From: an uncultured Dehalococcoidales bacterium
GTDB taxonomy: Bacteria; Chloroflexota; Dehalococcoidia; GIF9; UBA5629
NCBI GenBank assembly: GCA_964519615.1
Contig: CAZFIM010000001.1
Coordinates: 37,065-101,064, forward strand
Length of the DNA: 64,000 bases
Reading direction: 5' to 3'
Positions 6,266-63,802 of the stretch are shown here, one piece after another. Each line of letters opens with the position of its first letter. Positions within the stretch are counted from its first letter, which is position 1. Below the pieces are notes generated by a model. The model worked only from the letters and a program-made list of their open reading frames with translations, had not been told where the DNA came from and made no database searches. The position numbers and the translations under genes are program-made.

Positions 6266-6305
6266 TTTTTTTAGCCATATATTTTCATATTGGAATAGTA
6301 CCATT

Positions 6306-17182: not shown

Positions 17183-18006
17183 TGAAAAAGAAAGTCTTTG
17201 TAATCGATATTTCCAAGTGCAACGGATGTCATACCTGCCAGGTAGCCTGCAAAGACGAACATGTGGGCAATGACTGGACTCCTATAGCCAAGCCCCAGCC
17301 GGACAGCGGCCAGTTCTGGCTTGAGCTGACCGAGAGGGTCAGAGGCACCGTTCCTAAGGTAAAAGTAGCTTACCGTCCTCATCTTTGCGTCCACTGCGAC
17401 AAGGCCCCCTGTATGGATGCCTGCCCCATAGAGGGCACAATCTACAAGAGAGACGACGGTCTGGTGATTATCGATCCGGAGAAGTGCAACGGCTGTAAGA
17501 ATTGTGTGGATGCCTGCCCTTACGATGTTATCTTCTTCAATGAGGACCTCAATATCGCCCAGAAATGTACGGGCTGCGCTCATCTGCTCGATGGCGGCTG
17601 GACGGAGCCCCGCTGTGCCGATGCCTGTCCCACGCTGGCCCTGCGCTTAATGGATGAAGACAAAGCCAAAGACCTGATAGCAAAGGCCGAGGTCTGGAAA
17701 CCGGAGCTTAAAAACAAGGTGAAGCCGAGGGTCTATTACCTCAACCTGCCTAAAAAGTTTATTGCCGGCACTGTCTATGATCCGGTAGAGGAAGAGGTAA
17801 TCATCGGAGCTACCTGTACTCTGACGGAAGCCAAGGGCGGTCAGGAATATAAGATCAAGACCGACAGCTACGGCGATTTCTGGTTTGAAGACCTGAAAGA
17901 CGGTAAATTCAATCTGGAGATTAAGAGCGGTAAAAAGGTAAAAACCTTCAAAGGTCTGAATACTGCAGAGGCAGATATCAACCTGGGAGATATTCCGCTC
18001 ACGTAG
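17182..18006 (+). CDS. 4Fe-4S ferredoxin-type small subunit with C-terminal Ig/transthyretin-like domain (transhydroxylase beta-like)
   Basis: 274 aa. Four Cys motifs (CNGCHTCQVAC, CVHCDKAPCMDAC, CNGCKNCVDAC, CTGC..CADAC). ATGA overlap with the alpha subunit stop. Confidence 0.8.
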   Translation: MKKKVFVIDISKCNGCHTCQVACKDEHVGNDWTPIAKPQPDSGQFWLELTERVRGTVPKVKVAYRPHLCVHCDKAPCMDACPIEGTIYKRDDGLVIIDPEKCNGCKNCVDACPYDVIFFNEDLNIAQKCTGCAHLLDGGWTEPRCADACPTLALRLMDEDKAKDLIAKAEVWKPELKNKVKPRVYYLNLPKKFIAGTVYDPVEEEVIIGATCTLTEAKGGQEYKIKTDSYGDFWFEDLKDGKFNLEIKSGKKVKTFKGLNTAEADINLGDIPLT

Positions 18007-18032
18007 CCGAGCTCTGCATGAGAGTTCCATAA

Positions 18033-18062
18033 GGGGGCCTGATTACGGCCCCCTTATTTTTT
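18033..18062 (+). terminator. rho-independent terminator
   Basis: AAGGGGGCC-tgatta-CGGCCCCCTT followed by ATTTTTTA. Confidence 0.6.
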
Positions 18063-18173
18063 ACCCGACGCAGATAAAAATACTGTGATCTGATAACGAC
18101 TTCGTGATTGTGCGCATATTATTATCGGTCGCACATTGTCCGCAGTATGATATAAGCCGGCTGCCCGTTACCT

Positions 18174-19508
18174 TCAGGGATGTTCCATCTCCTCTATAAT
18201 CTTTTCTATATCTTCCGGTTTCTTGAAGGGGTCATCAACGATATACCTGATGATACCCTGCCGGTCGACAAAAAAGGTAGTAGGGAGAAATTCCAGCTTA
18301 TAGCTCTCAGCCACTTTTCCATCATAGTCCAGTAAAACGGGGAAGCTTATGTCCTGGGCCATAACATATATCTCCACCGATTTCTGCTTACCGTATACAT
18401 TAATAGCCAGCACCGTTGCCCCCTTGTCCTTCCACTGATCATAGAAAGATTGAAGCTGGGGTATCTCCCCCCGGCAGGCACCGCATGAAGCTATCCAGAA
18501 ATTGACCAGTACGATAGAGCCCTGCAGGTCGCTCAGTTTCACCTTTTGTCCATTTAAGTCCGAAAGCTCGAAATCAGGCGCAACGCTGCCTTCCTCCGGA
18601 CCTGTAGGCAGGGAAGCCAGTGTTGTGAAGCCCTCGGGTGCTTCATAGGTAGCTTTGTTGCCCCGTGAATCGGCAGAGATGACAACAAAGGTATACCCCG
18701 TATTGGGTTCCAGTCCCGTAACAGTGACAACATGATCGGTTACCGGAGTTTCATCGATATCCGTAAAATAAGAATGATTAGGTGTTGAGATACCCACCTG
18801 GCTGGTGGACAGTTTATCGGTCTTCCAGGTAATGACCGCCCCTGTGTGCGTTATCTGGACCGCTTCTGCCTCGGATATGGCAGGCGGGGACTCATGATCC
18901 GGGGTCAATCCCTTTATCTCGGCAATCATCCCGGCAACATCGCTTACCACGGCGGCTCCATGATCGGCCCCGTCGGGAGCCTTCACTTTTTTAGCTCGTA
19001 TGACGCCCTGCTCATCGATGAATATGGCCGCTGGAAAAGTGTCCAGACCGTATTGTCCGTAGACAAGGCTGTCCGGATCCAGCAGGACGGGAAAAGTATA
19101 TCCCTCGACGGTGATAAAATCGCTTACCGCCTGGCTGTTCTCGCCGATATCGATAGCCAGCACCTTGAGGCCTTCACTGGAGAAGGTCTGTGCCGTATCC
19201 TGCAGCAAAGGCAGGTCATAGACGCATTGAGTACACCACGATGCCCAAAAATAAAGCAGAACGATACTCCCCCTGTAATCACTTAGCGAGACGGGTCTTC
19301 CCCCGATATCAAACAGTGTGAAGTCGGGCGCCAGTTTGCCCACGTCCACCCCCACCTCAGGCCCCGGCTCATCTGCAGGGAGAGGATTCTCTGCATCTGC
19401 AGGCACAGGACTTTCTGCGGGGGAAGCGGCAAATAACACGATCCCCCATGCCGCCAGTCCCACAATACACACCGCCGCAATCACCACGGGCAGCATATGG
19501 CGCCGCAT
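18174..19508 (-). CDS. membrane-anchored thiol-disulfide oxidoreductase with TlpA-like thioredoxin, FN3-like and second TlpA-like domains
   Basis: TM helix. Two CxxC redoxin motifs (WCTQC and CGAC). Central FN3-like segment. Start chosen at MRRHM (ATG 19508). Confidence 0.7.
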   Translation of the reverse strand: MRRHMLPVVIAAVCIVGLAAWGIVLFAASPAESPVPADAENPLPADEPGPEVGVDVGKLAPDFTLFDIGGRPVSLSDYRGSIVLLYFWASWCTQCVYDLPLLQDTAQTFSSEGLKVLAIDIGENSQAVSDFITVEGYTFPVLLDPDSLVYGQYGLDTFPAAIFIDEQGVIRAKKVKAPDGADHGAAVVSDVAGMIAEIKGLTPDHESPPAISEAEAVQITHTGAVITWKTDKLSTSQVGISTPNHSYFTDIDETPVTDHVVTVTGLEPNTGYTFVVISADSRGNKATYEAPEGFTTLASLPTGPEEGSVAPDFELSDLNGQKVKLSDLQGSIVLVNFWIASCGACRGEIPQLQSFYDQWKDKGATVLAINVYGKQKSVEIYVMAQDISFPVLLDYDGKVAESYKLEFLPTTFFVDRQGIIRYIVDDPFKKPEDIEKIIEEMEHP

Positions 19509-19909
19509 AAACGAGCCCGCCTTTTGGAGGCAACGCTTTTCACGTAGTTTTCCTATAAAGCCATGACAATCTGTAATCCAGCCCGTAAACTTCATGATAC
19601 TCTCAGGCCTGTATACCTATCCTTTATTATATACTCTCTAAGGGAAACGGTTTATATGCAGAATAATCTTGATAACGTACACTATATCATATATCCGCAG
19701 TATGAGGCGACAGCGTTTAAGTACCGGTATACGCTGCCGCGCTGTACACCATCAAGCTGAACTATCGTATAGAAATATAACGCAAAAAGGAAGGTACGTG
19801 TTCAATTATCCGCCTGCCTCAATGAGCGGCTCTATGATAATATGATATACTCAAACGTATCACTTGCAGGTTGCCTTGGGGGCGCCATCCTGCATGGAGG
19901 AGACGATAT

Positions 19910-28968: not shown

Positions 28969-30393
28969 ATGAGTAAACGCATCAGTTTCGGTACCGATGG
29001 ATGGCGCGCTATCATAGCTGAAGATTTCACCTTCGATAATGTCCGGGCCTGTGCCAGAGGGGTAGGTGAATATATAAACAGCCGGAAACTGGGGCGTAAA
29101 GGGTTGGTGATAGGGTATGACACGCGCTTTGCCTCAGAGCAGTTTGCTGCGGCGGCAGCGGAAGTTATCGCTGCCTGCGGTATTAAAGTACATTTCTTGA
29201 CTGAGGCAGCTCCTACACCCGCCATCAGCTATATCGTCACCGCAACGCAATCTGCCGGAGGCATTATCATCACCGCCAGCCACAATCCCGGCGCCTGGAA
29301 CGGTTTCAAATATAAAGACGAGACCGGCGCCAGCGCGGCAAGCGAGCTAGTGGCCGTCATCGAACAGAATACCAATAAAGTTCTTAAAAAAGGTGACATA
29401 AAGAGGATACCTTTCGAGCAGGCGGTACAGGCCGGCCTCGTGAGCCTTTATGAACCAAAACCGATCTACTATCCGCAGATAGAGCGTCTGGTGGACCTTA
29501 AGTCCATACGCGCAAGCGGTCTATCCGTTGTGGTGGACTCCATGTACGGAGCCGGTATAGGATATTTCAAGGAGCTTCTGAACGGCGGCACCGTCAAAGT
29601 CAATGAGATCAACGGCTGCCGTAATCCCCTCTTCCCCGGTATACAACCTGAGCCGATAGGCAAAAACCTGACTGACCTCTGTGCGCTGGTGCCGCAGCAG
29701 AAAGCAAATGTCGGGCTTGCCACAGACGGTGATGCAGACCGCATAGGCGTTGTCGATGAAAAAGGCACCTTTCTCACCACACATCAGGTCTTTGCCCTGC
29801 TTGCCCTCTATTTTCTGGATATACACGGAGAGAAAGGGCCGATCGTCAAAAGCCTGTGCTCCACCAACATGATCGAGAAGCTGGGATCTCTCTATAACGT
29901 ACCGGTTTATGAGACTAAAGTAGGGTTCAAATACGTGGCGCCGCTTATGAAGGAGCATGATGCCGCCATCGGCGGGGAGGAGAGCGGAGGCTACGGCTTT
30001 AGAGGTCACGTACCGGAGCGCGACGGTATACTGGCCGGGCTCTATTTTCTGGATTTCATGCTCAAGACGGACAAAACGCCCTCTCAGCTTATCGACTACC
30101 TCTACAGCAAGGTGGGGCCGCATTACTATGACCGCCTGGATTTTCACCTCGCTCCGGAGCAGAAACAGGCGCTCATGGGCAGGCTTGCAGAAGGTCGTAT
30201 AAGCACTATAGGCAAGAGCAAGGTGAAGAGAATCAACGATGCGGACGGCCATAAGTTTATACTTGAAGATGATTCCTGGCTGCTGATGCGTTTCTCCGGT
30301 ACCGAACCTTTGCTCCGCATCTATGCCGAGAGCAGCACCATGGACAAAGTTCAGGCGCTGCTTGTCCGGGGAAGGGAGATGGTGGGGTTATGA
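28969..30393 (+). CDS. phosphoglucomutase/phosphomannomutase-family enzyme (archaeal-type)
   Basis: TASHNPGAWNGFK active-site serine loop and the GLATDGDADR metal loop. Confidence 0.85.
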   Translation: MSKRISFGTDGWRAIIAEDFTFDNVRACARGVGEYINSRKLGRKGLVIGYDTRFASEQFAAAAAEVIAACGIKVHFLTEAAPTPAISYIVTATQSAGGIIITASHNPGAWNGFKYKDETGASAASELVAVIEQNTNKVLKKGDIKRIPFEQAVQAGLVSLYEPKPIYYPQIERLVDLKSIRASGLSVVVDSMYGAGIGYFKELLNGGTVKVNEINGCRNPLFPGIQPEPIGKNLTDLCALVPQQKANVGLATDGDADRIGVVDEKGTFLTTHQVFALLALYFLDIHGEKGPIVKSLCSTNMIEKLGSLYNVPVYETKVGFKYVAPLMKEHDAAIGGEESGGYGFRGHVPERDGILAGLYFLDFMLKTDKTPSQLIDYLYSKVGPHYYDRLDFHLAPEQKQALMGRLAEGRISTIGKSKVKRINDADGHKFILEDDSWLLMRFSGTEPLLRIYAESSTMDKVQALLVRGREMVGL

Positions 30394-31454
30394 ACGATCT
30401 GGACAATCCCGCTGTTTTTCGAGAACGCGATCCGCAGGACATGCGCTCTCATCTGCGCGGGCTGCCCAAACAATGCCTCGATGCATGGCACAGCGCACTG
30501 AGTTTAAAACTCCCCTCTGATTACCGCACCGCAAACAAGGTGGTAATCCTGGGCATGGGCGGCTCCGCTATCGGAGCGGACCTGCTCAAAGGCCTTGCTG
30601 CCGGGCAGTCCAGACCTCTCATTTTCGTAAACCGTGATTACACCCTCCCGCCGTACGTGGATGAATCCACGCTGGTAGTTGCTTCCAGTTATTCGGGCAA
30701 CACGGAGGAGGTACTCTCGGCGTTCAGTCAGGCGCTCAAAAGCAAATGTAAAAAGCTCATCCTGACCACAGGGGGAGAGCTGAAGGCACTTGCCGATAAA
30801 GCGGGGATTCCTGTATATACGATAAATCACGTTTCTTCGCCCCGGGCGGCACTCGGGTACAGTTTGATGCCTTTGATGGCCGTTTTACGCAATCTGGAGC
30901 TTTTTGAGAGCACGCAGGTTAATATCGAGTCCCTGAAAAGGCACTTGTTTCTCCTGCTGGACCAGATCAACGATGAGGTGCCCTCCGCGTCCAATCCGGC
31001 CAAGAAGCTGGCGCTGGCTATGCAGGGCAAGATTGCCGTAATCTATGGAGCAGGCATGCTCACCGATGTAGCCCGCCGCTGGAAGACACAGATAAATGAG
31101 AACAGCAAAGCGTGGGCCTTCTACGAGACCTTCCCCGAGCTTAACCACAACGCGGTGGTGGGCTACCGCTACCCTGATGGGATGGCGGACAGCCTTTTTG
31201 TGGTGATGCTGCGCAGTCCGCGCCTGCACCCTCGCGTCCTGCTCCGCTATGATATTACCGCCGACCTGCTGGCGCAGCACCGCGTCTCCCATACGATAGT
31301 TGACGGCAAAGGCATCGACGACTTAAGCCAGGTCATGACGCAGGTCTTCTACGGCGATTGGGTGAGCTACTATCTGGCCCTGCTCAACGATGCAGACCCC
31401 ACTCCGGTGGAGACCATCGATTATCTTAAAAAGCGCCTGAGCGAAAGCCGGTAG
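30390..31454 (+). CDS. bifunctional phosphoglucose/phosphomannose isomerase (SIS domain, archaeal-type)
   Basis: Tandem SIS profile. ATGA overlap with the upstream gene. Confidence 0.8.
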   Translation: MNDLDNPAVFRERDPQDMRSHLRGLPKQCLDAWHSALSLKLPSDYRTANKVVILGMGGSAIGADLLKGLAAGQSRPLIFVNRDYTLPPYVDESTLVVASSYSGNTEEVLSAFSQALKSKCKKLILTTGGELKALADKAGIPVYTINHVSSPRAALGYSLMPLMAVLRNLELFESTQVNIESLKRHLFLLLDQINDEVPSASNPAKKLALAMQGKIAVIYGAGMLTDVARRWKTQINENSKAWAFYETFPELNHNAVVGYRYPDGMADSLFVVMLRSPRLHPRVLLRYDITADLLAQHRVSHTIVDGKGIDDLSQVMTQVFYGDWVSYYLALLNDADPTPVETIDYLKKRLSESR

Positions 31455-31457
31455 CTT
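31426..31457 (+). repeat. direct repeat copy A (3' end of PGI/PMI gene)
   Basis: TTAAAAAGCGCCTGAGCGAAAGCCGGTAGCTT. Matches copy B at 41538-41578 in 31 of 32 positions, with indels. Confidence 0.7.
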
Positions 31458-31673
31458 TCCTGCAAGAGAGGCCTCACGAACCTGATAGCTCCATATGCGT
31501 GTTTGCCAGCAAAGTAGTTTACCGTACCCCGATTTTATCGGGATGCGCAATAACAAATTGGAATAACCTTCAAAAATAGCACCCCTTGCCCAAGTATTCT
31601 GAAGACTGAAAATAACGGCGATTTCATCTTCATTTTTCGTATCATTATTCACATTTACATTCTTCGGTCATTA

Positions 31674-33635
31674 CTAGAGCAAAGACGCGGTGCTGAAAGC
31701 ACTTCGCATTGCTTTTTGCACATTACCAGGCACGTTGCAGTCACCAATCATGAAAAACCTATCGGCTATGCCGTAAAATTTAAGTGCCATGTCGCTCTTA
31801 GCCTTCATACCTGCGGCAATAATTACACTGTCAGCTTCAATACTATGATCGACTCCCTCGGCATCCGTATATATTATTCCATTCTCCCGAATAGTCTTAC
31901 AATATGCCTTTAAGATATATTTAAATGTTGGTAGCTTCTCCCATGCTTCTCTGAACATGCCGTAGAAATGGACAGGCGCAACATTTGGTGCCAGCATATC
32001 AAGCATCTCCAATAAAATGATATGGTGTCCTTTCTCGGCTAGATGCATCCCGGTTTCTACACCGACCTCTCCACCACCGATAATTACAACCTTTTTTGCC
32101 AGCGATTCCTCATTCCCGTAAACATTTTCGGCAAACAGAACATTACTCCCATCCACGCCGGGAATCCGTGGAACAACTGGCTGAGCGCCTATAGCAACAA
32201 GCACGGCATCATAATGATCTTTTTTAAGTATTTCTGGAGTTGCTTCTGTATTCAAGAGTACTTTTACATTTGCTTTTTCAATCTGTCGGACAAGGTAGTT
32301 TTTAAAATCTCGCTGTGGCCATTTGAAAGAAACGTTATCAGTCGTTTTGAGGAGTCCCCCCAGAGAATCGCTTTTTTCGTATAATGTTACATGATGTCCT
32401 CTGCCGGCTGCTATCAAGCTTGCTTCCATCCCTGCTGGTCCTCCACCTATAACCGCAATGTTCTTTATATCAGTAGGAGGCGAAATCATCCTTTCGATTT
32501 TATGCTCCAACCCCCATACAGGGTTGACCGAGCATACACTGACCTTTGGGTCTGCGGGGGCTCTCCTCAGACACATATTACATCTCATACAGGGCACCAC
32601 ATCCTCCCCTCTCCCCTCGTATGCTAAGCGGCCGAAATTCGGGTTGCTTATCCAGACTCTGGCCATGGCGATGAAATCAGCTTTTCCCGAAGCAATAATA
32701 CTCTCACAAACATCTAGGTCCTGATATCCGCCAACAGTTACGATAGCAATGTTTTCTACACTCTTTTTAACGGCCTCTGCCATATAAAGGTACGGCGTGC
32801 GCTCCGGCATAAAGCCGGTGGGATGCGCAGGATCGATCTCCGGCGCCCTTATCTGGAGCAGGTCAATATGACCGGCGAACATCTTTGCATACTCCACGGC
32901 ATCCTCCAGGGTAAAACCTCCCGGCGGTTCGCAGCCGCTCATATTTGCTTCAATAAGGAAATCACGTCCGCACTTCTGCTTAATTCGATCGGCAACCATA
33001 AGCGGAAAACGTGCCCTGTTTTCCAGACTCCCGCCGTATTGGTCCGTTCTCTTGTTTGTAAGGGGAGATAAAAACCTCCCTAATATAGTAAACCTGTACG
33101 CCATATGTAGATACACCATATCAAAGCCCATGGATTTCATCATAAATGCCTGATGCACAAAATATTCGGCAACTTCATCCAGTAAATCCGCGGGAATTTC
33201 TTCACCTGTTCTGGGAGTAGCAAAACCTACATCTACAGAAAGGATCCCACTACTCACATCGTATTTAATCGGCACGTAGCCGCCGATCTGCATTGATGCC
33301 CTGGCACCATAGAAGTGGATTGCATCAGCCATCTGGCTGATGTAATTCTGGCAGTGCACATTATCAATATCAAAGGTACCCGGCAATATCCGCTTTGGGG
33401 AATACGTTTTTAGCTCGTCATCGGGAATTACCTCCGGCATGCCCACTCCTTTGCAGGTAACAAGAGCCGCACCGTTTCTGGCTTTATTGGCATAATGTGT
33501 AATCAGAGGCTCGGTAGGATATGGTTCTGAGCCCTGGATATAGCGGGGTGAGCTCCGCGATGCGATCATCCTATTTTTAAAAACGCTGTTGCCTACTTTA
33601 ATAGGTGACAATAGATTTTGGTATTTATGAGACAT
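31674..33635 (-). CDS. NADH:flavin oxidoreductase of the 2,4-dienoyl-CoA reductase/2-enoate reductase type (OYE TIM-barrel plus 4Fe-4S plus FAD/NAD(P) domain)
   Basis: 653 aa. Cys cluster CMRCNMCL..C. Two Rossmann GxGxxG motifs (VIGGGPAGME, IIGGGEVG). Confidence 0.8.
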   Translation of the reverse strand: MSHKYQNLLSPIKVGNSVFKNRMIASRSSPRYIQGSEPYPTEPLITHYANKARNGAALVTCKGVGMPEVIPDDELKTYSPKRILPGTFDIDNVHCQNYISQMADAIHFYGARASMQIGGYVPIKYDVSSGILSVDVGFATPRTGEEIPADLLDEVAEYFVHQAFMMKSMGFDMVYLHMAYRFTILGRFLSPLTNKRTDQYGGSLENRARFPLMVADRIKQKCGRDFLIEANMSGCEPPGGFTLEDAVEYAKMFAGHIDLLQIRAPEIDPAHPTGFMPERTPYLYMAEAVKKSVENIAIVTVGGYQDLDVCESIIASGKADFIAMARVWISNPNFGRLAYEGRGEDVVPCMRCNMCLRRAPADPKVSVCSVNPVWGLEHKIERMISPPTDIKNIAVIGGGPAGMEASLIAAGRGHHVTLYEKSDSLGGLLKTTDNVSFKWPQRDFKNYLVRQIEKANVKVLLNTEATPEILKKDHYDAVLVAIGAQPVVPRIPGVDGSNVLFAENVYGNEESLAKKVVIIGGGEVGVETGMHLAEKGHHIILLEMLDMLAPNVAPVHFYGMFREAWEKLPTFKYILKAYCKTIRENGIIYTDAEGVDHSIEADSVIIAAGMKAKSDMALKFYGIADRFFMIGDCNVPGNVQKAMRSAFSTASLL

Positions 33636-34213
33636 AAGAACTCCTTTTTAATACTATTTTAACCAGTTAATCGTTTGTGGCGAAGTAAAACGATATGTTA
33701 AGAACGACCACTCGTACCCACCGGATTCGGGCTAGAAAAAGCGACACCCCCAAAACCCCGGCCGGTTAATGGCGAATATAGCCATTGAGGAATAGCCTGC
33801 CTCCTTCCTATAAGTACCTTTAATAACAGCGGAAGAAATAGAGATAGGCCGCTTAAATCACTTCTTATACCACTATACTGCTCTACGCTTAAACTTGGCC
33901 TTCTCCGGAGATCTTGCACGTTTGCAGTATGGGCGTCTCAAGGGAACCATGTTAGTACCATACCAAATCAATCACATGTTATTACCGTGCCAATAGTTGC
34001 TATCGCAATAATATCTAATGGGATCAATAAGACATACAATGCTCAACTCTTGTGAACAGAAGCACCCGATACAATAGCTGATCATGCCTAATAATATCTA
34101 TTGTCGCTGATAGAATATCAATCCGTAGTACGGTGACCCAATTTACATGGACAGTATCCAGTATCACCTTAATAAATCTTCCGCCGTTTTCATTAATGGT
34201 TATGCATATCCGC

Positions 34214-34882
34214 CTATACAGTGGTTCCCTGTATAGGCGGCATGTTATGTTTCCTTCTGTCAATAATGGAAAGAAAAGCTTGACTTAATCCAATTTCTTC
34301 CCAATTCTGATCGTGTAATGAGGGAATAAAATAAACGCTGGTGCTTTTTATGCCGCCGGATAAAAGGGGTTTGGCTTTCCCGGAATCAACTAATGAGAAT
34401 ACAGGACTCTCCTTATCGTCTTGAAGGCCGAATAGTATTGCCTGTGCCGGACATGTTTCCACACACTTGGGTAGTAAACCTTTCTCTAGCCGGTCAGCGC
34501 AGAAATCACACACATCAGCTTTACCGTCCGGTCCAATATATATAACGCCATAGGGGCAAACGCCGGCACATAGTCCGCATCCATTACAACTTTCCTTATC
34601 TATTCTAATTATGCCGTCACTTCCCTGAGTTATAGCACCAGCATGACAAAAAGTTAAACAAACCGGATTTTCACAATGCATGCAATGTAGAGGTATAAAA
34701 GCCCTTTCTACCGTGGGAAATTTACCATATTCCCACTCGGCATATATCAATCTAGAATACTCGTATTTATGTGTTTTATCCCTGGGGTGAGCCAGTATAC
34801 CATGTTCTTTTTTACAGCTTACATAGCAGGTTCTGCAGCGAACACACTTGTTAAGATCTATGACCATTGCGTATTGTGCCAT
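34214..34882 (-). CDS. 4Fe-4S ferredoxin-type electron-transfer subunit (DmsB/PsrB-like) of molybdoenzyme
   Basis: Four CxxCxxCxxxCP-type motifs. Confidence 0.8.
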   Translation of the reverse strand: MAQYAMVIDLNKCVRCRTCYVSCKKEHGILAHPRDKTHKYEYSRLIYAEWEYGKFPTVERAFIPLHCMHCENPVCLTFCHAGAITQGSDGIIRIDKESCNGCGLCAGVCPYGVIYIGPDGKADVCDFCADRLEKGLLPKCVETCPAQAILFGLQDDKESPVFSLVDSGKAKPLLSGGIKSTSVYFIPSLHDQNWEEIGLSQAFLSIIDRRKHNMPPIQGTTV

Positions 34883-34883
34883 C

Positions 34884-37370
34884 CTAAGCCTCTTTATCGA
34901 TTTTTTGCAGCTTTACTATCGAGTAGTTTTTACCTACTCCTGCCGCATATGGGGAGACAGTCGTTGGAATAAGTCTGTTCATAGCTATAGCTGTATCGGC
35001 CTTATCGAGTTTATGTGTGGACTTATGTCCCGAGGCAAAATATATCCACAAAGCACTGGGATGCAATCCTTCAGTTACCTTTACCTTTGCCCTTTCTTTG
35101 TTCCCTACCGCTGTTTCATCATAAACACAACTATCCGTCTGTTTGGTTGGCCCTATACAGGTAACCTCGACAAGATCACCATCTGCTATATCCAGCTTCC
35201 CGGCTCGTTCGGTGTTAATGTACAATGTAGTATAAGGACATCCGCCCTCAATACCATCTTCCATTAAATACAAATTATTCTGAGTTGCACTTTTTTGATG
35301 CCACGATGCTTTCCCACATGTAAGAATAAATTCATCATCTCCGTCAGGTTGTGCCGTCGGTATATAATTTGGAAGCGGGCTCACGTGTGGGTTCCCTTTC
35401 CATACAGAATTAGTGTTGAAATAACATTCCTCAGCAAGCTCATTGGAATACATTTCAAACCGTCCACTTCTGGTTTTAATGGGCTTATAAAGTAAGTTAT
35501 ATTCAAGTGGATGTGATTCTAAGTAGGGGCCGTCATCAATCAACTGCCTGCTATTTACTCCGGGGTATAACCCGGCTCGCTTTAACATCCTGTCCCACCA
35601 TCCATAATCCAGGTCCAGTTTAGAAAAGTATTTCTCCATGCCAGCTTTTTTAGCCACCTCCACAAGAAACCAGCTAAGCGATTTTGCCTCTCCCGGCGGA
35701 GGGATCACCGCCGATCTCATATACAGGACATCGTGTTCTTTTCCGTCCGTGCCGATATAATTACGCTGATATAAGTGATATCTTTCCAGATAAGACGCTT
35801 CGGGAATTACGTAATCAGCCATATCGGTAAACTCTTTATATATCTGCTCACCTACAATGACAAGCTCAAGGTCGCTAATGCACCCGTTCACCAGATCAGA
35901 ATTAGACTGTGTAAGAGCGGCATTTTCAGCCGATGATAATACTGCTCGTACTTTTTTCTCTTTGATTGCATCAAAATGCAGCCACGGGAGCGCTACAGTG
36001 GCGGGATGGAATTTTCGCGGGTTTTCATAACAGGATGCTTTATCGATTGCCTCAATCGATATCATGTTTCCCCAGGGTCCTGGAACAGTATTAAGCTTAT
36101 CCCGATAGTCGGGGACTTCCGGAGGCTCCGGCCACCCATTGCCCAGATCGAATTTATGTTTGAGACAATAGTATCCCCCGGGTTTTTCGAAATTGCCAAG
36201 CAGCATATTGGTTGCACTGAACGCTCTTAGCGTCTGGAACCAGTTTGGATACCTCCCGGATGTGAAACCGGGATACAGGATTACAGCCGGTTTATTATTA
36301 CCGAGGTATCTTGCTATTTCCGCTACCTTCTCTTCCGGGAATGGTATATCAGCAGAATATTTCAGGGCTTCTTCCGCGAACATTTGAAAAACTGTTTTAC
36401 ATGTTATCGTTTCCCCGTTGTGTTCGACTTTAAAAGTCTGCCCTGAACCAAGCGTCAGGCCGTCTCGCATGCCCGCGCCTGGTAGAGGCTGTGCTGAACT
36501 GGTAGTGGTATTCCAGACCAGGTACATACCGTCTTTATTTGTCAGCGCCTGTCCATTGTCTTCACGTACAAGCTGACACGCATTTGTATAATTGAGAAGA
36601 AATTCCTCATCATACAGGTTTTCTTTAATCAGAATAGCCGCTATGTTTAACGCAAATGTTGCGTCTGTACCTGGCTTAATAGGGATCCATTCATCGCACC
36701 ATGCTGATGAGTCACTGAGCTTTGGATCAACTACAATAAATTTACATCCCTGCTCTCTGGCTTTGTTTGCCATAGCGTACATAGGTATGCTGCATGGAGA
36801 ACAATTACCCGGAAAGTTTTGTCCTCCTATCACCGCATATTTTGTTTTTGTGAAATCAACTGAAATTGAAAGGAAGGAGGGACCATGATTTTCACCAAAA
36901 GTAATCATTTTTTCCACAGCATGATCGCCAAAGCATGCCTGGCCGTGCAAATATGAGATGCCGGTTTTCATCACCGCAGACCAGTAATGTAAAAAGGGAA
37001 CCTTGTCTTGTTGATCGGGGCATCCCCACCATATTTCAAAATAATTTGGATACTCAGAATGATCATATCCCTGAAGTTTAGATGCCAGAGCCCCGATAAC
37101 CTCATCCCATGTACATCTGATGAATTTACCCTCACCTCTTTCTCCTATTCTCTTCAGAGGATATAATATTCTATTAGACGGATATACCCGGTCACTGACT
37201 CCTGAAATAGCTTTGCCGCAGATTTTCCCATTCCAATCAGGCAAGTCTTCTCCGGCTACTTCAACAATCCTGCCGTCTTTAACCCTCGCTTTCATCGGTG
37301 CGCCTATGCACATTGCGCAACCGCTATGCATCCACTTCCCATCTTCTTCACTTTTTTTTACGAACGCCAT
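34884..37370 (-). CDS. DMSO-reductase-family Mo/W-bisPGD oxidoreductase catalytic subunit, cytoplasmic (no TAT signal), atypical N-terminal H-x2-C-x2-C..C motif
   Basis: 828 aa. N-terminus HSGCAMC...KICGKA. Molybdopterin-binding fold throughout. Confidence 0.75.
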   Translation of the reverse strand: MAFVKKSEEDGKWMHSGCAMCIGAPMKARVKDGRIVEVAGEDLPDWNGKICGKAISGVSDRVYPSNRILYPLKRIGERGEGKFIRCTWDEVIGALASKLQGYDHSEYPNYFEIWWGCPDQQDKVPFLHYWSAVMKTGISYLHGQACFGDHAVEKMITFGENHGPSFLSISVDFTKTKYAVIGGQNFPGNCSPCSIPMYAMANKAREQGCKFIVVDPKLSDSSAWCDEWIPIKPGTDATFALNIAAILIKENLYDEEFLLNYTNACQLVREDNGQALTNKDGMYLVWNTTTSSAQPLPGAGMRDGLTLGSGQTFKVEHNGETITCKTVFQMFAEEALKYSADIPFPEEKVAEIARYLGNNKPAVILYPGFTSGRYPNWFQTLRAFSATNMLLGNFEKPGGYYCLKHKFDLGNGWPEPPEVPDYRDKLNTVPGPWGNMISIEAIDKASCYENPRKFHPATVALPWLHFDAIKEKKVRAVLSSAENAALTQSNSDLVNGCISDLELVIVGEQIYKEFTDMADYVIPEASYLERYHLYQRNYIGTDGKEHDVLYMRSAVIPPPGEAKSLSWFLVEVAKKAGMEKYFSKLDLDYGWWDRMLKRAGLYPGVNSRQLIDDGPYLESHPLEYNLLYKPIKTRSGRFEMYSNELAEECYFNTNSVWKGNPHVSPLPNYIPTAQPDGDDEFILTCGKASWHQKSATQNNLYLMEDGIEGGCPYTTLYINTERAGKLDIADGDLVEVTCIGPTKQTDSCVYDETAVGNKERAKVKVTEGLHPSALWIYFASGHKSTHKLDKADTAIAMNRLIPTTVSPYAAGVGKNYSIVKLQKIDKEA

Positions 37371-37467
37371 TGACTCTCCTTTGTCTAAAGCACATATTGC
37401 TATTTCCGGGTTAATAGTTCAGGAAGTTATCATCACCAACTGTTTCTTTTGCCGCAAATACAGCAGC

Positions 37468-38769
37468 TCATCCGGTCATATGCGTTGGCAGGAACATGGC
37501 TATTTCCGGAAACAGGATAAGCAGGATGATGCAGACGAACATTGGTATTATGAAGGGAATAACGCCTCTAAATATTGTGCCAAGCGAAATATCGCGGGCA
37601 ACTCCGTGGATAACATATACATTCATACCAAATGGAGGAGTAATCATACCCATCTCCATCATGATGACTACTATTACTCCGAACCAGATAAGATCATAGC
37701 CGACAGCCTGTACAGCAGGGTAAAAAATAGGTATCGTCAGTAGTATCATAGCCAGAGTATCCAGAAAACAGCCAAGGATTAAATATACAACTACAATAAC
37801 TATAATAACCACATAAGGAGTCTGGAGCGTACCAAGAATATCAGAAAGTACAAAAGGTATTTTTGAAAACGCAATAAAGGACGAAAATATAAGGGCTCCA
37901 ATAAGTATTGTGAAAATCATACCGGTGGTTATCATCGTTTCGGTGATGGACGTGCGTATTCCCTTCCATGTAAGCTTACGGCTTGCGAGAGCTATAATAA
38001 AGACAAGAAGAGCTCCCACCGCGCCTGCTTCTGTAGGTGTAAAAATCCCAGCATATATGCCTCCCATCATACCGATAAAGACGATCAATACAGGCCATAC
38101 TCCTGAGAGCGATTTCACCATTTCCTTAAATGGAGCGCGCTTTATGGCAGGCCCCATAGTGCCATCAATTCTGCACAATATGTATATGGTGCCTAAAAAT
38201 AGTAGCGCGAGGAGTATACCGGGTATAAAACCGGCAAGTAAAAGCTTGCCTACTGATTCTTCGACAAGTATTGCATAGATAACAAGCGGCACACTTGGTG
38301 GTATTAGTATACCCAGAGTACCTCCCGCAGCCACACAACCAGTCGCCAGCTTTTGAGAGTACTTATAGCGCTTCATTTCCGGCAGTGCGACAGCCCCCAT
38401 GGTAGCCGATGTGGCAAAACTCGAACCTGAGAGAGCAGCAAAAGCAGCACACGCCACAATACTGGCCATTGCCAGTCCGCCTTTTATATGTCCGACCCAC
38501 TTGTATGTAGTAGAGTAGAGGTCTACGCTTATGGCTGAATGAAAAGAGAACTGCCCCATTATAATAAACAAAGGAACAACACTTAGCGAATATGCTGCGA
38601 TAGTGTTATACGGGATTGTCCCAAGACAGGAAAGAGCGGAATCCATACCTCTGAAATAAATCAGTCCCAGAAATCCAATACCAGCCATCGAAAACGCAAT
38701 GGGCAATCTCAAAAACATGAGCACAATAAGAAGGGCAAGTCCTATAATACCAATTGTTACACTGCTCAT
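37468..38769 (-). CDS. dctM: TRAP transporter large permease DctM
   Basis: 433 aa, 12+ TM helices, DctM profile. Confidence 0.85.
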   Translation of the reverse strand: MSSVTIGIIGLALLIVLMFLRLPIAFSMAGIGFLGLIYFRGMDSALSCLGTIPYNTIAAYSLSVVPLFIIMGQFSFHSAISVDLYSTTYKWVGHIKGGLAMASIVACAAFAALSGSSFATSATMGAVALPEMKRYKYSQKLATGCVAAGGTLGILIPPSVPLVIYAILVEESVGKLLLAGFIPGILLALLFLGTIYILCRIDGTMGPAIKRAPFKEMVKSLSGVWPVLIVFIGMMGGIYAGIFTPTEAGAVGALLVFIIALASRKLTWKGIRTSITETMITTGMIFTILIGALIFSSFIAFSKIPFVLSDILGTLQTPYVVIIVIVVVYLILGCFLDTLAMILLTIPIFYPAVQAVGYDLIWFGVIVVIMMEMGMITPPFGMNVYVIHGVARDISLGTIFRGVIPFIIPMFVCIILLILFPEIAMFLPTHMTG

Positions 38770-39263
38770 TTTTTCATGGCCTCCCCAATGTTAGACAAGA
38801 TTTTTACCAGCAAAACGATGCATAGCAAGAAGAGGCCAAAGGCGAATATATAGATGAAAATTGAATCCGGCAAGTGTAGAACGGCAGAATATTGGCCGTA
38901 TTTTAACAATTTACTGCCATAGACAAAGGTTTGCCACGATATCAGACCAAATATGCAAAGCGCAAATAGATGAGTGATGATATAAACTATGGCCTGTGCC
39001 CTGCTCGGGAACGAAAAAAAGGTTACCGTAACATGCCTGTCGTGGATCATTGTATAGGATATTGCAAAACCTACCAGAACAACCAGTGTAAATACGATTA
39101 ACTCGAAGTCCCCAGGTATAGGGCTATTGAAGAGATATCGCAATATTACAGTTACGAAGGTGAAAAACATCATAAGAATAATAAGCATTCCACCCAAAAG
39201 GCTCAGTGCCCCGCTGACGGGATAAAATATCTTTTTTATGAATGCGGCTATTGCATCTATCAT
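38766..39263 (-). CDS. dctQ: TRAP transporter small permease DctQ
   Basis: 165 aa, 4 TM helices. 4-nt overlap with dctM. Confidence 0.7.
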   Translation of the reverse strand: MIDAIAAFIKKIFYPVSGALSLLGGMLIILMMFFTFVTVILRYLFNSPIPGDFELIVFTLVVLVGFAISYTMIHDRHVTVTFFSFPSRAQAIVYIITHLFALCIFGLISWQTFVYGSKLLKYGQYSAVLHLPDSIFIYIFAFGLFLLCIVLLVKILSNIGEAMKK

Positions 39264-39426
39264 ATAAACCTCATTCAGGTTAATACTATATCAGCTTTAT
39301 CAATTATCGATTAAGTCTGGCGACTGCTATATGCGGTATGTAACAAGATGACTATGTGGGAGATGGGCAAACCTTTCATTTAATGGTCTGCCCATCCCGT
39401 TGTCACCATTTAAGACACTTTACAGA

Positions 39427-40503
39427 CTATTTATATTCTGCAGACATCTCCAGTGCTGCGTTTACCATTTCCGTGCCTGGGAATCCTTTAGCATCCATAT
39501 CTGCAGCCCATTGGTCCCTCTGAGGTTTTACTGCCGCTTCAAATTTAGCCTTTTCAGCGGCTGAGACCTCTACTAATACCTGTCCCCCTTCAATGATTTT
39601 ATCGTAGGCGTTCCGGTCCATATCATACATTACCTGGGCATATACCTGTGAAGCTTTAGCTCCCGCATACTCATCGAACACTGCTTTTACATCTGCGGGC
39701 AAGCTATTATATTTTTCTTTGTTCATTACTACAAGGTGGCTGGTAGTTGCGATATCGACCATGGTCGTATATTTTGCTACCTCCCACAGTTTAAAGGCAT
39801 TATAACCTTCCCATTCGAACAGGGATCCATCCAGTGTGCCTCTTTCTATGGAAGTATAGATCTCTGAGGGAGGCATAGCCACCGGGACTGCCCCTGTCAA
39901 TGTAACCGTTTCTGTGGGGATACTCCCCGTTACTCTTATCTTCTTCCCTTTAAGGTCCGCGATTGTTTCTACCGGTTCAACCATTTGAAACTTTCTGGCA
40001 CCAAGCGGCGACCAGACCAGTACCTTCACATCGGCAAAATCATCCAGCATCTCAGGGAACATTTCATGAAGCCCCATGGCAACGCGGGTAGCGTTCACAC
40101 CGTCGCCAGGAAATATAAGCGGAAGTTCGACAATTTCATGCATAGGAAAACGGCCTGAGAGATAAGCGGGATTGATTAAAATGATATCTGCCGTGCCTTC
40201 TACAGCCAGGTCATACTGCTCCACCGATTTACCTAAAGCACCACCGACATACATTTCAAATGTCATTTTGCCATTGGTAGCATCTTTGATTTCGTTACAT
40301 ACAGCCTCCATGCTTACAGGGCCACCCGCAGGTCCGGGATCTGCCGTAGAAACGATTAAATTAACAACTTCAGTTGTATCCGGTATTGTTGATGGTGCAG
40401 GTGCCGGTTCAGTCGACGGGCTAGGTGCTGGCTGCGCACAACCAAGCATAGTCGAGCCCGCAATGATTACACTCACCATCAAAAGTATAAAGATTTTATT
40501 CAT
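39427..40503 (-). CDS. dctP: TRAP transporter solute-binding lipoprotein DctP-type
   Basis: Lipobox LGC followed by a Pro/Ala/Ser-rich linker. DctP-family fold. Confidence 0.8.
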   Translation of the reverse strand: MNKIFILLMVSVIIAGSTMLGCAQPAPSPSTEPAPAPSTIPDTTEVVNLIVSTADPGPAGGPVSMEAVCNEIKDATNGKMTFEMYVGGALGKSVEQYDLAVEGTADIILINPAYLSGRFPMHEIVELPLIFPGDGVNATRVAMGLHEMFPEMLDDFADVKVLVWSPLGARKFQMVEPVETIADLKGKKIRVTGSIPTETVTLTGAVPVAMPPSEIYTSIERGTLDGSLFEWEGYNAFKLWEVAKYTTMVDIATTSHLVVMNKEKYNSLPADVKAVFDEYAGAKASQVYAQVMYDMDRNAYDKIIEGGQVLVEVSAAEKAKFEAAVKPQRDQWAADMDAKGFPGTEMVNAALEMSAEYK

Positions 40504-40727
40504 TAGTATGCCTCCTTATAACGTTTAATAGTTTAGTTGCCAGGTAAAAACATCACAAAAGTTAATATAAAGCACGAATAATGAAAATACGAGACGCCAT
40601 AATTCCTACATTTTACTTAAATGTCCAACGGATGTATATATGTAAAATTAACTACTACTAAATAGTTATTTATTTGTTATAATTAATACTACTTCTTTAT
40701 TAATTCTGGCTTCTTCGAGAACTTAAA

Positions 40728-41377
40728 ATGAAGATAATGGTTGCTGATAAAAGAGAGCTATTTCGTGAAGGTTTAACCACTCTACTCAAAGCTAAATATG
40801 GGCGTAAATCGGTTTTTTCTTGTTCTGATCCGTCTAAATGCATAACAAAATGCATGGAGTGTGAGCCTGATATTATCATTATAGATATAGAGATTTACGA
40901 AAAAGATAGGAATCTGATAGAGGAAATACACAAATCTCTTCCCAATACAAAAATCCTGGTATTGACACATTCGATAAATAATGCTGATATGATTAATGCG
41001 ATAAAAAGCGGTTCGCGCGGATATCAAAGGACGTTTCGCTTCAACACCTTTGTGCGGTTATCACCAGTATTGCTTCGGGAGAAATGGTTATATCGGAGCC
41101 TTTGGCTTCAAGTATATTAAAAAAAGAAGGCATTTTTAAGTCTGATTTAGATAATTTTAATGAAAAAGATATTGCTGGTCTCACGGAAAAAGAAAAAAAA
41201 GTGTTGGCGCTATTGGCTAAAGGAGCTTCAAATAAACAAATAGCGCAGGAACTTAAGATTAGTGAAAATACAGTAAAAGCCCATATGCGAAATATATTTG
41301 AAAAACTGCGCGTACACAGCAGGCAGCAGGCGATATCTGTGCTATTTGGGAATAATCGGGCTTCTCAATCTGCCTGA
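40728..41377 (+). pseudogene. NarL/LuxR-family response regulator, frameshifted (REC domain in frame 1, linker plus LuxR HTH in frame 2)
   Basis: ORF 40728..41120 encodes a REC-like domain ending ..SGSRGY. Shifting reading frame at ~41021 gives [27 protein letters not shown].. continuing into the LuxR HTH of ORF 41084..41377. The REC has an atypical acidic pocket (VADKRE instead of DD). Confidence 0.55.
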
Positions 41378-41440
41378 TCCTAGATTTGCATCCGTTTTTA
41401 AACTCTATTCAAAGTAGTAGATTTGTCTCTTAGATGAAAA

Positions 41441-41467
41441 ACAATCCGATTCAACGAATCGGATTGT
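41441..41467 (-). terminator. perfect 11-bp hairpin with short U-tract on the minus strand (possible secondary terminator)
   Basis: ACAATCCGATT-caacg-AATCGGATTGT. The minus-strand 3' flank is TTTTC. Confidence 0.3.
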
Positions 41468-41537
41468 TGGAAGAAAGGTACCTTAGGCATCATCAATCTC
41501 ATCCGGTACATTTTGCCACAACGCCGCTAGCAGCTAT

Positions 41538-41578
41538 TTAAAGAAGCGCTTGAGCGAAAGCAGGAAAAGCGGTAGCTT
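41538..41578 (+). repeat. direct repeat copy B (intergenic relic of PGI/PMI 3' end)
   Basis: TTAAAGAAGCGCTTGAGCGAAAGCAGGAAAAGCGGTAGCTT. Confidence 0.7.
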
Positions 41579-41590
41579 ATCTGAAATTCA

Positions 41591-41623
41591 TAAAAAAGGC
41601 CTGCTCTTTTTAAGCAGGCCTTT
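41591..41623 (-). terminator. rho-independent terminator of the ribosomal superoperon
   Basis: AGGCCTGCT-taaaaagag-GCAGGCCT followed by TTTTTT on the minus strand, 20 nt after the rpsI stop. Confidence 0.7.
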
Positions 41624-41643
41624 AATTTTTCCAAAAATAATCT

Positions 41644-42039
41644 TTAGCGCTTGGTGTACTGAGGCGCCTTGCGGGCACGTTTGAGACCGTACTTCTTGCG
41701 CTCTTTTTCACGCGCATCGCGTGTGAGCAGGCCCTCATTGCGCAGAGGGGTCCTGAAGTTCTCATTGTTCAGTACCAGGGCACGGGCGATACCAAGGCGG
41801 ATTGCTCCTGCCTGACCGGTAACACCGCCTCCGATTACTTTTACCTCGGCATTGTATTTGCCAACCGTATCTGTAGCCTTAAAGGGCTTTTCTATCGTTC
41901 GTTGATGCTCCACCCGTGGGAATCTTTGCTGATAGGGTTTCCCATCGATGATAATCTCTCCCGTTCCCTGTGTGAGCTTGACCTGGGCAATAGCGCTTTT
42001 GCGCCTGCCGGTACCTCGATCATAAGTTTGCGCGGACAC
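41644..42039 (-). CDS. rpsI: 30S ribosomal protein S9
   Basis: Conserved uS9 translation with C-terminal ..KRARKAPQYTKR. Confidence 0.95.
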   Translation of the reverse strand: MSAQTYDRGTGRRKSAIAQVKLTQGTGEIIIDGKPYQQRFPRVEHQRTIEKPFKATDTVGKYNAEVKVIGGGVTGQAGAIRLGIARALVLNNENFRTPLRNEGLLTRDAREKERKKYGLKRARKAPQYTKR

Positions 42040-60392: not shown

Positions 60393-60451
60393 AACAGCCT
60401 GTCCCGCAGCGGCTTTGGCCTTACGTTTGCTTTGGTTTAAATCGGTGAGTG

Positions 60452-60922
60452 CTACCATCGGTAATGAGCGTACGCCTTATTGGACTCGGCCATTCTATGG
60501 GTATCCTGACGCTTCTTGACCGCCGCCCCTTCGCCCTGTGCGGCATCGCCAATTTCTGACGCAAGCCTGCTTGCCATCGACTGACCTTTACGTGACCTGG
60601 CAAAATCGACCAGCCATCGGATAGCCATGATCTGTCCGCGCGCAGGTGTAACCTCAACGGGCACCTGATAGGTGGCACCGCCCACCCGCCTGGCTTTCAC
60701 CTGGACGAGAGGGGTAACGTTTTTCATCGCCTGCTCGAAGATTTCCATGGGATCACGCTTCAATTTTCCACTGACGATCTCCAGCGCATCATAGACAACG
60801 CGTTCGGCGGTAGATTTCTTACCGTCAAGCATTACTTTGTTAATGAACTTGGTCAATACCTGGCTCCCGTATCTGGGGTCAGGAATTATCGGCCGTTTTA
60901 TTGCCCTGGCACGTCGTGACAT
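60452..60922 (-). CDS. rpsG: 30S ribosomal protein S7
   Basis: uS7 translation. Confidence 0.95.
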
Positions 60923-62240: not shown

Positions 62241-62373
62241 GTGATTTTATTAATCAGGCTAATTATTTCTTCTATCGTCCATATATGATCGGTTACTTTT
62301 GCTGCCATAGCTGGCGTTTTCCTCGGTATCCAGTAAACTCTAATCTATCTAGCGAGTAAATAAACTTTCACTA

Positions 62374-63728: not shown

Positions 63729-63802
63729 TACGGTTAACCTTTACAGATTGTTGAGGTCGACTTTTGATAATTTACCTTGCGCGGCATCAGAAAGGCCGCG
63801 CT

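Follow-up and report, generated by a model that had tools for sequence, protein, structure and literature searches.

A 64,000-nt stretch of DNA from an uncultured Dehalococcoidales bacterium (hereafter, the window) contains a low-GC island of 10 kb between pgi (30390-31454) and rpsI (41644-42039). The island encodes a TRAP transporter, a two-subunit (alpha and beta) enzyme of the molybdenum- or tungsten-bis-pyranopterin guanosine dinucleotide (Mo/W-bisPGD) type, a flavoenzyme and a response regulator. Sequence comparisons support the placement of the alpha subunit outside every characterised clade, in a small clade known from metagenomes only. The unit conserved among the loci that carry this clade is alpha-beta, which behaves as a cassette plugging into varied acid-catabolic clusters. 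Our best explanation of the window locus, held tentatively and short of what we would call probable, is that horizontal transfer brought in the island, a mosaic module with a catabolic or electron-sink role, for the uptake of an aromatic carboxylate and its subsequent reductive processing in the cytoplasm by alpha-beta and the flavoenzyme.

All seven genes (dctP, dctQ, dctM, alpha, beta, flavoenzyme and regulator) were found with the list of open reading frames (ORFs), Pfam and NCBIfam at the coordinates given in an earlier reading of the same DNA (the original prediction), and both the gene inventory and the co-directional order from dctP to beta described there are correct. The features are as follows.

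31455..41643, low-GC island holding every gene of the finding
31674..33635, minus strand, FMN / [4Fe-4S] / FAD-NAD(P)H reductase of the FadH / enoate-reductase / 2-naphthoyl-CoA reductase (NCR) family, 653 aa (Pfam Oxidored_FMN and Pyr_redox_2)
33636..34213, non-coding spacer of 578 nt from beta to the flavoenzyme gene
34210..34240, perfect 12-bp stem-loop across the beta stop codon, possible transcript 3' end
34214..34882, minus strand, electron-transfer subunit beta, 222 aa (Pfam Fer4_11)
34884..37370, minus strand, catalytic Mo/W-bisPGD subunit alpha, 828 aa, predicted cytoplasmic (Pfam Molybdopterin and Molydop_binding)
37468..38769, minus strand, DctM, large TRAP permease (Pfam DctM, E 9e-97; TIGR00786, 331.8 bits against a cut-off of 268)
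38766..39263, minus strand, DctQ, small membrane subunit of the TRAP transporter (Pfam DctQ, E 7e-22)
39427..40503, minus strand, DctP-type TRAP solute-binding lipoprotein, predicted to be of the TarP-like aromatic-acid kind (Pfam DctP, E 2.5e-47)
40504..40727, AT-rich divergent control region between dctP and the regulator, GC 0.27
40728..41377, plus strand, NarL/FixJ-type response regulator, frameshifted and orphaned (Response_reg 40728-41120, GerE 41084-41377, in two frames)

Alpha passes the tests for the Mo/W-bisPGD family (DMSO reductase or MopB), with 87.9 bits for PF00384 (cut-off 24) and 30.8 bits for PF01568 (cut-off 26.8), and in Foldseek its fold matches dozens of DMSO-reductase-family structures at E values of 1e-28 or better. 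The sequence has no twin-arginine (RR) motif, in line with the earlier description of an 828-aa protein with no twin-arginine translocation (TAT) signal. Its position outside the characterised clades, also proposed earlier, is borne out by several comparisons. Alpha reaches no curated NCBIfam cut-off, the best model being PhsA (NF012032) with 216.3 bits against 694, and the type II DMSO reductase model TIGR03479 scores 143.6 against 984.75. The best sequence match in the PDB is Thermus PsrA, at about 19-25% identity (E 8e-35; profile E 9e-58), and acetylene hydratase (second-best, E 2e-26), PcrA and EbdA follow. With the AF2 model (pLDDT 82.5) PcrA, EbdA, PsrA and ArrA are about equally close (TM about 0.7, 16-19% identity), PcrA and EbdA being the top Foldseek matches with E about 1e-37. 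The profile comparison with characterised families, which had been set as a test, placed alpha inside no well-characterised clade.

The clade itself is sharply bounded and rare. Among 5.8 billion protein clusters, 66 clusters are at least 47% identical to alpha and the next match is at 31%, and at 50% clustering the clade amounts to about two representatives among 1.84 billion proteins. Neither the clade proteins nor the intermediate relatives include a cultured organism or an informative name. A literature search on the genomics of the clade enzyme in Dehalococcoidia and Bathyarchaeota returned nothing on the clade, and the MopB superfamily survey contains no description of it. Its members, at 45-70% identity, come from Dehalococcoidia, other Chloroflexota, Desulfobacterota, Syntrophomonadaceae, other Bacillota and Bathyarchaeia, and this spread over phyla at such identities suggests lateral transfer of alpha. 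Eight contigs (L005, L028, L015, L049, L087, L074, L048 and L003) carry alphas that are at least 97% identical to one another and about 60% identical to that of the window, and those of them with a named source (L005, L015 and L003) are of Bathyarchaeia type; the two levels of identity suggest a recent spread within archaea and an older inter-domain transfer.

An alignment of all clade members splits cleanly in two, with the number of cysteines at the FS0 iron-sulfur site tracking the architecture. Members with a TAT signal have four FS0 cysteines (C18, C21, C24 and C51), and are followed by beta; usually an NrfD-type membrane protein comes next, together with a NarJ/TorD-like chaperone and a polyferredoxin with a FlpD domain. 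Judged by TAT signal, NrfD anchor and NarJ-like chaperone, these predicted exported relatives have the build of PsrABC-type, quinol-linked terminal reductases. In members without a signal, the window alpha among them, position 24 is Ala, Gly or Thr, and the TAT-type accessory genes are absent. In the window alpha the site reads H15-x2-C18-x2-C21 ... C51, with Ala24 where the TAT relatives carry Cys. The residues of the unusual H-x2-C-x2-C..C motif singled out in the original prediction are therefore as described there, although its reading of the His in place of a fourth cysteine is less clear. H15 is conserved in the type-II-like first FS0 position, yet C146 (see below) is also invariant, and since H15 is kept in the four-cysteine members of the clade it is not clearly a replacement ligand. 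Either a His-ligated [4Fe-4S] cluster of the NarG kind or a [3Fe-4S] cluster may occupy the site.

All members of the clade share the motif H142-G-Q-x-C146-F-G-D149. As a predictor of the metal ligand it is ambiguous, because C146 aligns with the Cys metal-ligand position (PsrA Cys173 and acetylene hydratase Cys141) and D149 aligns with the Mo-ligand Asp of PcrA (Asp170) and EbdA (Asp223). Two sets of known enzymes share features of sequence and fold with the window pair. PsrABC and PhsABC provide the best solved match for both subunits, the Cys at the C146 position, four [4Fe-4S] groups in beta and the NrfD anchor that is seen in TAT-type members of the clade. They differ in the PhsA score far under its cut-off, and the window enzyme lacks a TAT signal and NrfD (the gene is absent from the island), has only three FS0 cysteines and is coupled to an organic-acid importer. 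The type II enzymes (NarGH, EbdABC and PcrAB) provide the top folds, a Mo-ligand Asp that aligns with D149 and a His at the first FS0 position as in NarG-type enzymes. They differ in that the window proteins score far under the type II cut-offs, the FS0 spacing is x2 and not x3, beta has 16 Cys, and the window locus has no gene for a gamma haem subunit or a chaperone.

Three assignments for alpha were tried and rejected: formate dehydrogenase, since Phe and not His follows the ligand Cys; acetylene hydratase, since the position of its catalytic Asp13 falls in a gap of the phmmer alignment; and pyrogallol transhydroxylase, since the clade profile gives 38 bits with 4V4C_A and alpha has no AhtL-like domain (PF21423). 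Pyrogallol-phloroglucinol transhydroxylase (AthL/BthL) and the resorcinol and 3,5-dihydroxybenzoate hydroxylases resemble the window pair in being cytoplasmic alpha-beta bisPGD enzymes, and these act on phenolic rings, but they are very distant. The window also encodes another Mo-bisPGD alpha-beta pair, at 14510-18006 (plus strand), in native-GC DNA seventeen kb away. Its large subunit (890 aa) has the AhtL-like domain and a full-length match to 4V4C_A (pyrogallol hydroxytransferase) with E 3.8e-124, and its small subunit (274 aa) has Fer4_11 and a CarboxypepD_reg-like C-terminal domain. This pair is probably a transhydroxylase or a resorcinol-type hydroxylase, and the presence of a close relative of pyrogallol-phloroglucinol transhydroxylase indicates that phenolics are handled by the host.

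The 16 Cys of beta fall into four ferredoxin-type [4Fe-4S] groups, as expected from the four-cluster ferredoxin subunit originally described, and with 16 Cys there is no 3Fe-4S site. The motifs predict a wire of four [4Fe-4S] clusters. Its best PDB match is PsrB (2VPW_B, E 3.4e-36), and its best NCBIfam match is the type II beta model TIGR03478 with 118.7 against a cut-off of 480.7.

The TRAP transporter is complete, with all of its P, Q and M components present. DctP starts with a lipobox (MLGC) and a Pro/Ser/Thr linker, and the predicted lipoprotein anchoring fits a monoderm host. DctP was compared with solved binding proteins, whose ligands were taken from the titles of the PDB entries in the fold search. 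The best sequence matches are 7NR2, 5IM2, 7NRR, 7NSW and 5I5P. The top Foldseek matches of the AF2 model (pLDDT 91.7) are TarP with coumarate, cinnamate, ferulate, caffeate or 4-hydroxyphenylacetate (TM 0.80-0.82, 25-30% identity), and a solute-binding protein from a marine metagenome (GOS), described as aromatic-acid-specific, is also among them. The carboxylate-binding Arg is conserved in the K-I-R of DctP and aligned with that of TarP. The likeness to TarPQM, the TRAP transporter for lignin-derived phenylpropenoids, extends to sequence, fold and this Arg, with the window DctP differing in its lipoprotein anchor and in the low identity, at which the likeness assigns the class of the ligand and not the ligand. 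These matches lend support, from sequence and fold, to the earlier guess that an aromatic or unsaturated carboxylate is taken up.

The 653-aa reductase of the old yellow enzyme (OYE) type that had been described next door, with 4Fe-4S and FAD parts, has the expected domains and a four-cysteine motif (C348-x2-C351-x2-C354-x12-C367) between the FMN and the FAD parts. Its best PDB matches are 2-naphthoyl-CoA reductase (6QKG, E 4e-72) and then FadH, the 2,4-dienoyl-CoA reductase (1PS9, E 7e-51). It shares with FadH, 2-enoate reductase, NCR and BaiCD an FMN barrel, a four-Cys cluster and a FAD/NAD(P)H domain in one chain, with full-length matches. It differs from them in equivalog scores of about 300 bits against cut-offs of 750-825: none of the NCBIfam models for BaiCD (302 against 825), bilirubin reductase (BilR-long; 306 against 750) and mycofactocin OYE2 (295 against 793) was reached. 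In addition, the usual substrate-binding pair is H-x2-H/N, and the window flavoenzyme has H-M-A-Y-R instead.

The composition of the island is foreign relative to the genes around it. GC per gene is 0.36-0.47 inside the island, with GC at third codon positions (GC3) of 0.30-0.48, and the flanking housekeeping genes have GC of 0.49-0.56 and GC3 of 0.54-0.69; the right-hand flank is the rpsI-rplM-truA-rpoA cluster. The flavoenzyme gene has the same low-GC signature as the TRAP and Mo genes, which suggests that it arrived with them or from the same kind of donor. Transcription on the minus strand would run in the order dctP, dctQ, dctM, alpha and beta, and then, past 578 nt, the flavoenzyme gene. 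The dctQ and dctM genes overlap by 4 nt, 97 nt separate dctM from alpha and 1 nt separates alpha from beta, and a clear Shine-Dalgarno sequence stands upstream of dctP, dctM, alpha and beta, dctQ being the exception. This spacing and these ribosome-binding sites fit a putative dctPQM-alpha-beta operon. The stem-loop at the beta stop codon may mark the 3' end of the transcript, although it is not a canonical terminator since no U-run follows it on the minus strand. The flavoenzyme gene has its own Shine-Dalgarno sequence and, with 578 nt and the 12-bp hairpin separating it from beta, probably its own promoter.

A set of 70 non-redundant loci was compiled from genome, metagenome and exact-protein look-ups. 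Beta stands directly after alpha in 56 of the 61 non-redundant loci that have downstream DNA. Other neighbours were counted in the 30 loci of cytoplasmic type whose flanking DNA reaches at least 5 kb (the informative loci), with 12 TAT-type loci for comparison. The most frequent is an aldehyde:ferredoxin oxidoreductase (AOR), found near alpha in 10/30 and in at least seven distinct gene arrangements. DUF169 (always directly after beta), a class-III aminotransferase and a D-2-hydroxyacid dehydrogenase (2-Hacid_dh) occur in 7/30 each, DctM (TRAP) and CoA ligases in 6/30 each, a LarA-like racemase (Lar_N) in 4/30, OYE/FadH in 3/30, and a 2-hydroxyacyl-CoA dehydratase with its activator (HGD-D with BcrAD) and FAD_binding_4 in 2/30 each. 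These counts overstate independence because related loci share synteny. Apart from one DUF169 and one aminotransferase, in a single locus each, the recurrent neighbours were not found in the 12 TAT-type loci. A transporter of one kind or another (TRAP, TAXI-TRAP, Opp-type, Liv-type, MFS or TTT) is near alpha-beta in essentially every informative cytoplasmic-type locus, and the gap between importer and alpha-beta is 34-190 nt in other loci.

The context comparison that had been proposed for genomes with homologues therefore gave a mixed answer. The adjacency of alpha and beta held, and the partners vary. The module is thus no conserved pathway unit: of its genes, just alpha and beta stay together across the 70 loci. 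OYE/FadH, TRAP and alpha-beta do occur as a trio in three non-redundant loci (the window, L022 and L047), where the order of the genes differs. Between these three loci OYE, DctP and DctM are 25-37% identical (the OYE copies 28-33%) and alpha is 60-70% identical, so the OYE and TRAP genes of the three loci are not orthologous.

The mechanism that we propose for the window would proceed as follows. The TRAP system would import a carboxylate, in this window of phenylpropenoid type or a similar aromatic acid. Cytoplasmic alpha-beta, which we regard as a derived, soluble version of the exported form, would take electrons from the ferredoxin pool through beta and convert the imported carboxylate in a two-electron step, most likely a reductive one; we favour reduction because the build of the exported relatives is that of terminal reductases. 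The flavoenzyme, with NAD(P)H, would saturate the alpha,beta double bond or partly reduce the ring of the same compound or of its CoA ester, a functional link to alpha-beta that we infer. A concrete version would be the conversion of a hydroxycinnamate to a hydroxyphenylpropionate and then to a dehydroxylated product. Support comes from the genes present, their spacing and their ribosome-binding sites, the foreign composition of the island, the Dehalococcoidia host, the two architectures of the clade, the adjacency of alpha and beta, the closeness of the pair to PsrA and PsrB, the TarP-like DctP, the NCR/FadH-like flavoenzyme, the recurrence of the trio, the transporters near alpha-beta in the informative loci, the genes elsewhere in the clade that resemble an aryl-lactate pathway (2-Hacid_dh, Lar_N, HGD-D with BcrAD, CoA ligases and AOR) and the transhydroxylase-like second pair in the window, and also from the precedent of soluble alpha-beta bis-molybdopterin guanine dinucleotide (bis-MGD) enzymes that stand beside transporters and act on aromatic acids (PMC7028382, PMC11887054).

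By analogy, the nearest known architecture would be that of the Gordonibacter-type catechol dehydroxylases. These enzymes (Dodh, Cldh and GsVadh) are predicted to be soluble and consist of a bis-MGD subunit without TAT signal and a small Fe-S protein, their genes lie beside transporters and a regulator, their substrates are aromatic acids, and the family also has a TAT-exported, membrane-anchored Eggerthella type (PMC7028382, PMC11887054). Compared by published descriptions, the window locus shares with them the soluble alpha-beta pair beside a transporter and a regulator, and its clade shares the duality of soluble and exported forms. The transporter and regulator there are of MFS and LysR type, and here they are of TRAP type and a broken NarL type.

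Several points weigh against this explanation. The published catechol dehydroxylases are nearest to acetylene hydratase (PMC7028382) and the window clade scores higher with PsrA, an indirect pointer which argues against membership in the catechol dehydroxylase (Cdh) clade. The aromatic-acid class of the ligand is predicted from sequence and fold at a DctP-TarP identity of only 25-30%. The association of OYE and TRAP genes with alpha-beta may reflect the abundance of such genes in these genomes, given their low identity between loci compared to alpha. TRAP binding proteins of other loci belong to other subfamilies (they match lactate and keto-acid binders in L032 and L004, and 4MNC in L022), and the substrate class of the enzyme, if it is a single one, may for that reason not be the phenylpropenoids. 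The flavoenzyme gene is set apart from beta by the spacer and the hairpin. Finally, the direction of the reaction (reduction, hydroxylation or a non-redox conversion) is not readable from sequence, and we infer the reductive step.

Two further alternatives appear unlikely. According to one, alpha-beta is a ferredoxin-dependent 2-oxoacid/2-hydroxyacid (or aldehyde-linked) oxidoreductase for amino-acid-derived acids, and an aryl-pyruvate, aryl-lactate or aryl-acrylate would be imported here. Proteus vulgaris has an orphan Mo-dependent (2R)-hydroxycarboxylate-viologen oxidoreductase that is comparable in reaction type. The recurrent neighbours fit such a function (AOR, aminotransferase, D-2-hydroxyacid dehydrogenase, LarA-like racemase, FAD_binding_4 and HGD-D, with AOR in its seven or more arrangements), as do the TRAP binding proteins of L032 and L004, which are closest to lactate, pyruvate and keto-acid binders. 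The shared synteny mentioned above reduces the weight of the neighbour counts. The partner genes are all missing here: the full 64-kb window contains no homologue of AOR, DUF169, PrpD, LarA or HGD-D. To our knowledge no gene is known for any DMSO-reductase-family enzyme with 2-oxo- or 2-hydroxyacid activity, and a literature search on the Proteus Mo-dependent 2-oxoacid reductase gave nothing usable.

The other alternative, which we judge to be doubtful to the same extent, is that alpha-beta is a soluble Psr/Phs descendant that passes ferredoxin electrons onto polysulfide, thiosulfate, elemental sulfur or an S- or N-oxide and so re-oxidises ferredoxin reduced by the products of neighbouring genes. 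PsrA and PsrB are the best solved sequence matches of the two subunits, the TAT-type relatives carry the full PsrABC-like set of subunits, the heterogeneity of neighbours suits a role that is independent of the pathway, and the frequent AOR neighbours are ferredoxin reducers. However, the PhsA score (216 bits against 694) and the identity to PsrA of about 19-25% are low, and the folds of PcrA and EbdA match as well as that of PsrA. Importers of organic solutes placed tightly head-to-tail with alpha-beta (97 nt here, 34-190 nt elsewhere) would be unexpected for an enzyme with an inorganic acceptor, and the rarity of the clade would be odd for a general sink.

It is rather improbable that the adjacency is largely coincidental, with TRAP-alpha-beta as one unit and the OYE/FadH gene as an unrelated passenger on the island. 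The 578-nt gap, the stem-loop and the separate Shine-Dalgarno sequence before the flavoenzyme gene would suit a passenger, and so would the presence of OYE/FadH in only 3/30 informative loci with copies 28-33% identical. The gene nevertheless has the foreign GC of the island, and OYE, TRAP and alpha-beta recur together in three gene orders. A non-redox hydratase of the acetylene-hydratase type is very improbable: C146-F-G-D149 resembles C141-I-G-N of acetylene hydratase, which is the second-best PDB match of alpha, and the aldehyde-oxidising AOR is a frequent neighbour, but the catalytic Asp13 falls in the alignment gap and the conserved four-cluster beta, in its place after alpha in 56/61 loci, points to electron transfer, whereas acetylene hydratase (PDB 2E7Z) is a monomer without a beta subunit and has no electron-transfer partner.

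A broader reading would be that, with alpha-beta, subsurface Dehalococcoidia, Bathyarchaeia and Desulfobacterota have a new functional class of soluble Mo/W enzymes. The class would descend from exported respiratory reductases that lost the TAT signal, the membrane anchor and one FS0 Cys, and would serve the reductive defunctionalisation of imported aromatic or 2-oxo/2-hydroxy acids, for example by dehydroxylation. Taken as a whole, we regard this combined claim as quite unlikely. If it is true, the class would be an environmental, independently evolved counterpart of the gut catechol dehydroxylases, and it would tie Mo/W chemistry to AOR and DUF169 in the carbon turnover of sediments.

Dehalococcoidia and Bathyarchaeia dominate anoxic sediments, and little of their catabolism is known. 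A sharply bounded, metagenome-only clade that has its own Fe-S subunit, retains 60-70% identity across bacterial and archaeal phyla and recurs beside solute importers, tungsten aldehyde oxidoreductases and 2-hydroxyacid enzymes is of interest in that setting. Identification of its reaction would give a new activity for the DMSO-reductase superfamily and could explain how acids derived from lignin or amino acids serve these organisms as a source of carbon or as electron acceptors. The pair of an exported four-Cys form and a soluble three-Cys form is also a useful case of how respiratory molybdoenzymes become cytoplasmic.

The regulator is divergently transcribed, and its atypical receiver and frameshift had been reported correctly. 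Its acidic pair is D-K instead of DD, it has no Shine-Dalgarno sequence, and there is no histidine kinase adjacent to it in the window. In a tblastn alignment to the intact L022 regulator, the frame switches at 41025-41026, directly past the conserved G-Y and with no long homopolymer there. The intact counterpart in L022 is accompanied by a HisKA_3 kinase. The earlier term "decayed" is a fair description, although an assembly error could also be the source of the frameshift. With the regulator broken, expression would be constitutive or controlled from elsewhere. The divergent control region contains a 23-nt direct repeat (40637-40659 and 40671-40693, 34 nt apart; TATATGTAAAATTAACTACTACT / TATTTGTTATAATTAATACTACT) that may be an operator.

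Scans of the intergenic DNA for promoters and terminators gave nothing above shuffled expectation. In the 578-nt spacer no ORF has homologues. Neither this spacer nor the other intergenic regions matched an Rfam family, and blastx showed in them no trace of genes that stand after beta elsewhere, such as DUF169, or of other neighbours. A megablast search of the region against complete E. coli genomes gave no match.

Some observations on the other loci may be added. A DUF169 gene (about 263 aa) lies 40-100 nt after alpha-beta in L031, L032, L033, L045, L053, L054, L066 and L079, and the total for DUF169 is 10 non-redundant loci, of which 9 are cytoplasmic-type; a literature search found no link of DUF169 to molybdoenzymes. 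In the locus L024/L040 (1-5271), L024 has two further molybdopterin oxidoreductase genes, adjoining UbiA and HGD-D with BcrAD, and L037 has a second, convergent copy of alpha. The Desulfobacterota locus L004, which has TRAP and alpha-beta, also has a glycyl-radical enzyme with its activase, a Zn alcohol dehydrogenase and a thiamine diphosphate (ThDP) enzyme (3849-7105 and 17783-19588), a set that resembles genes of organosulfonate or diol catabolism.

As for the host, the named relatives of the elongation factor EF-G encoded in the window are 74-75% identical and all come from Dehalococcoidia or Chloroflexota metagenome-assembled genomes. The EF-G ORF (58317-60458, minus strand) gives 713 aa from its first start codon, whereas its closest relatives have 691-692 aa, about 21 fewer, and the true start is probably further downstream. 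At the right end of the window (62001-64000) GC falls to 0.38 around the gene of an NYN-domain protein (62374-63195), and this part may be another foreign segment.

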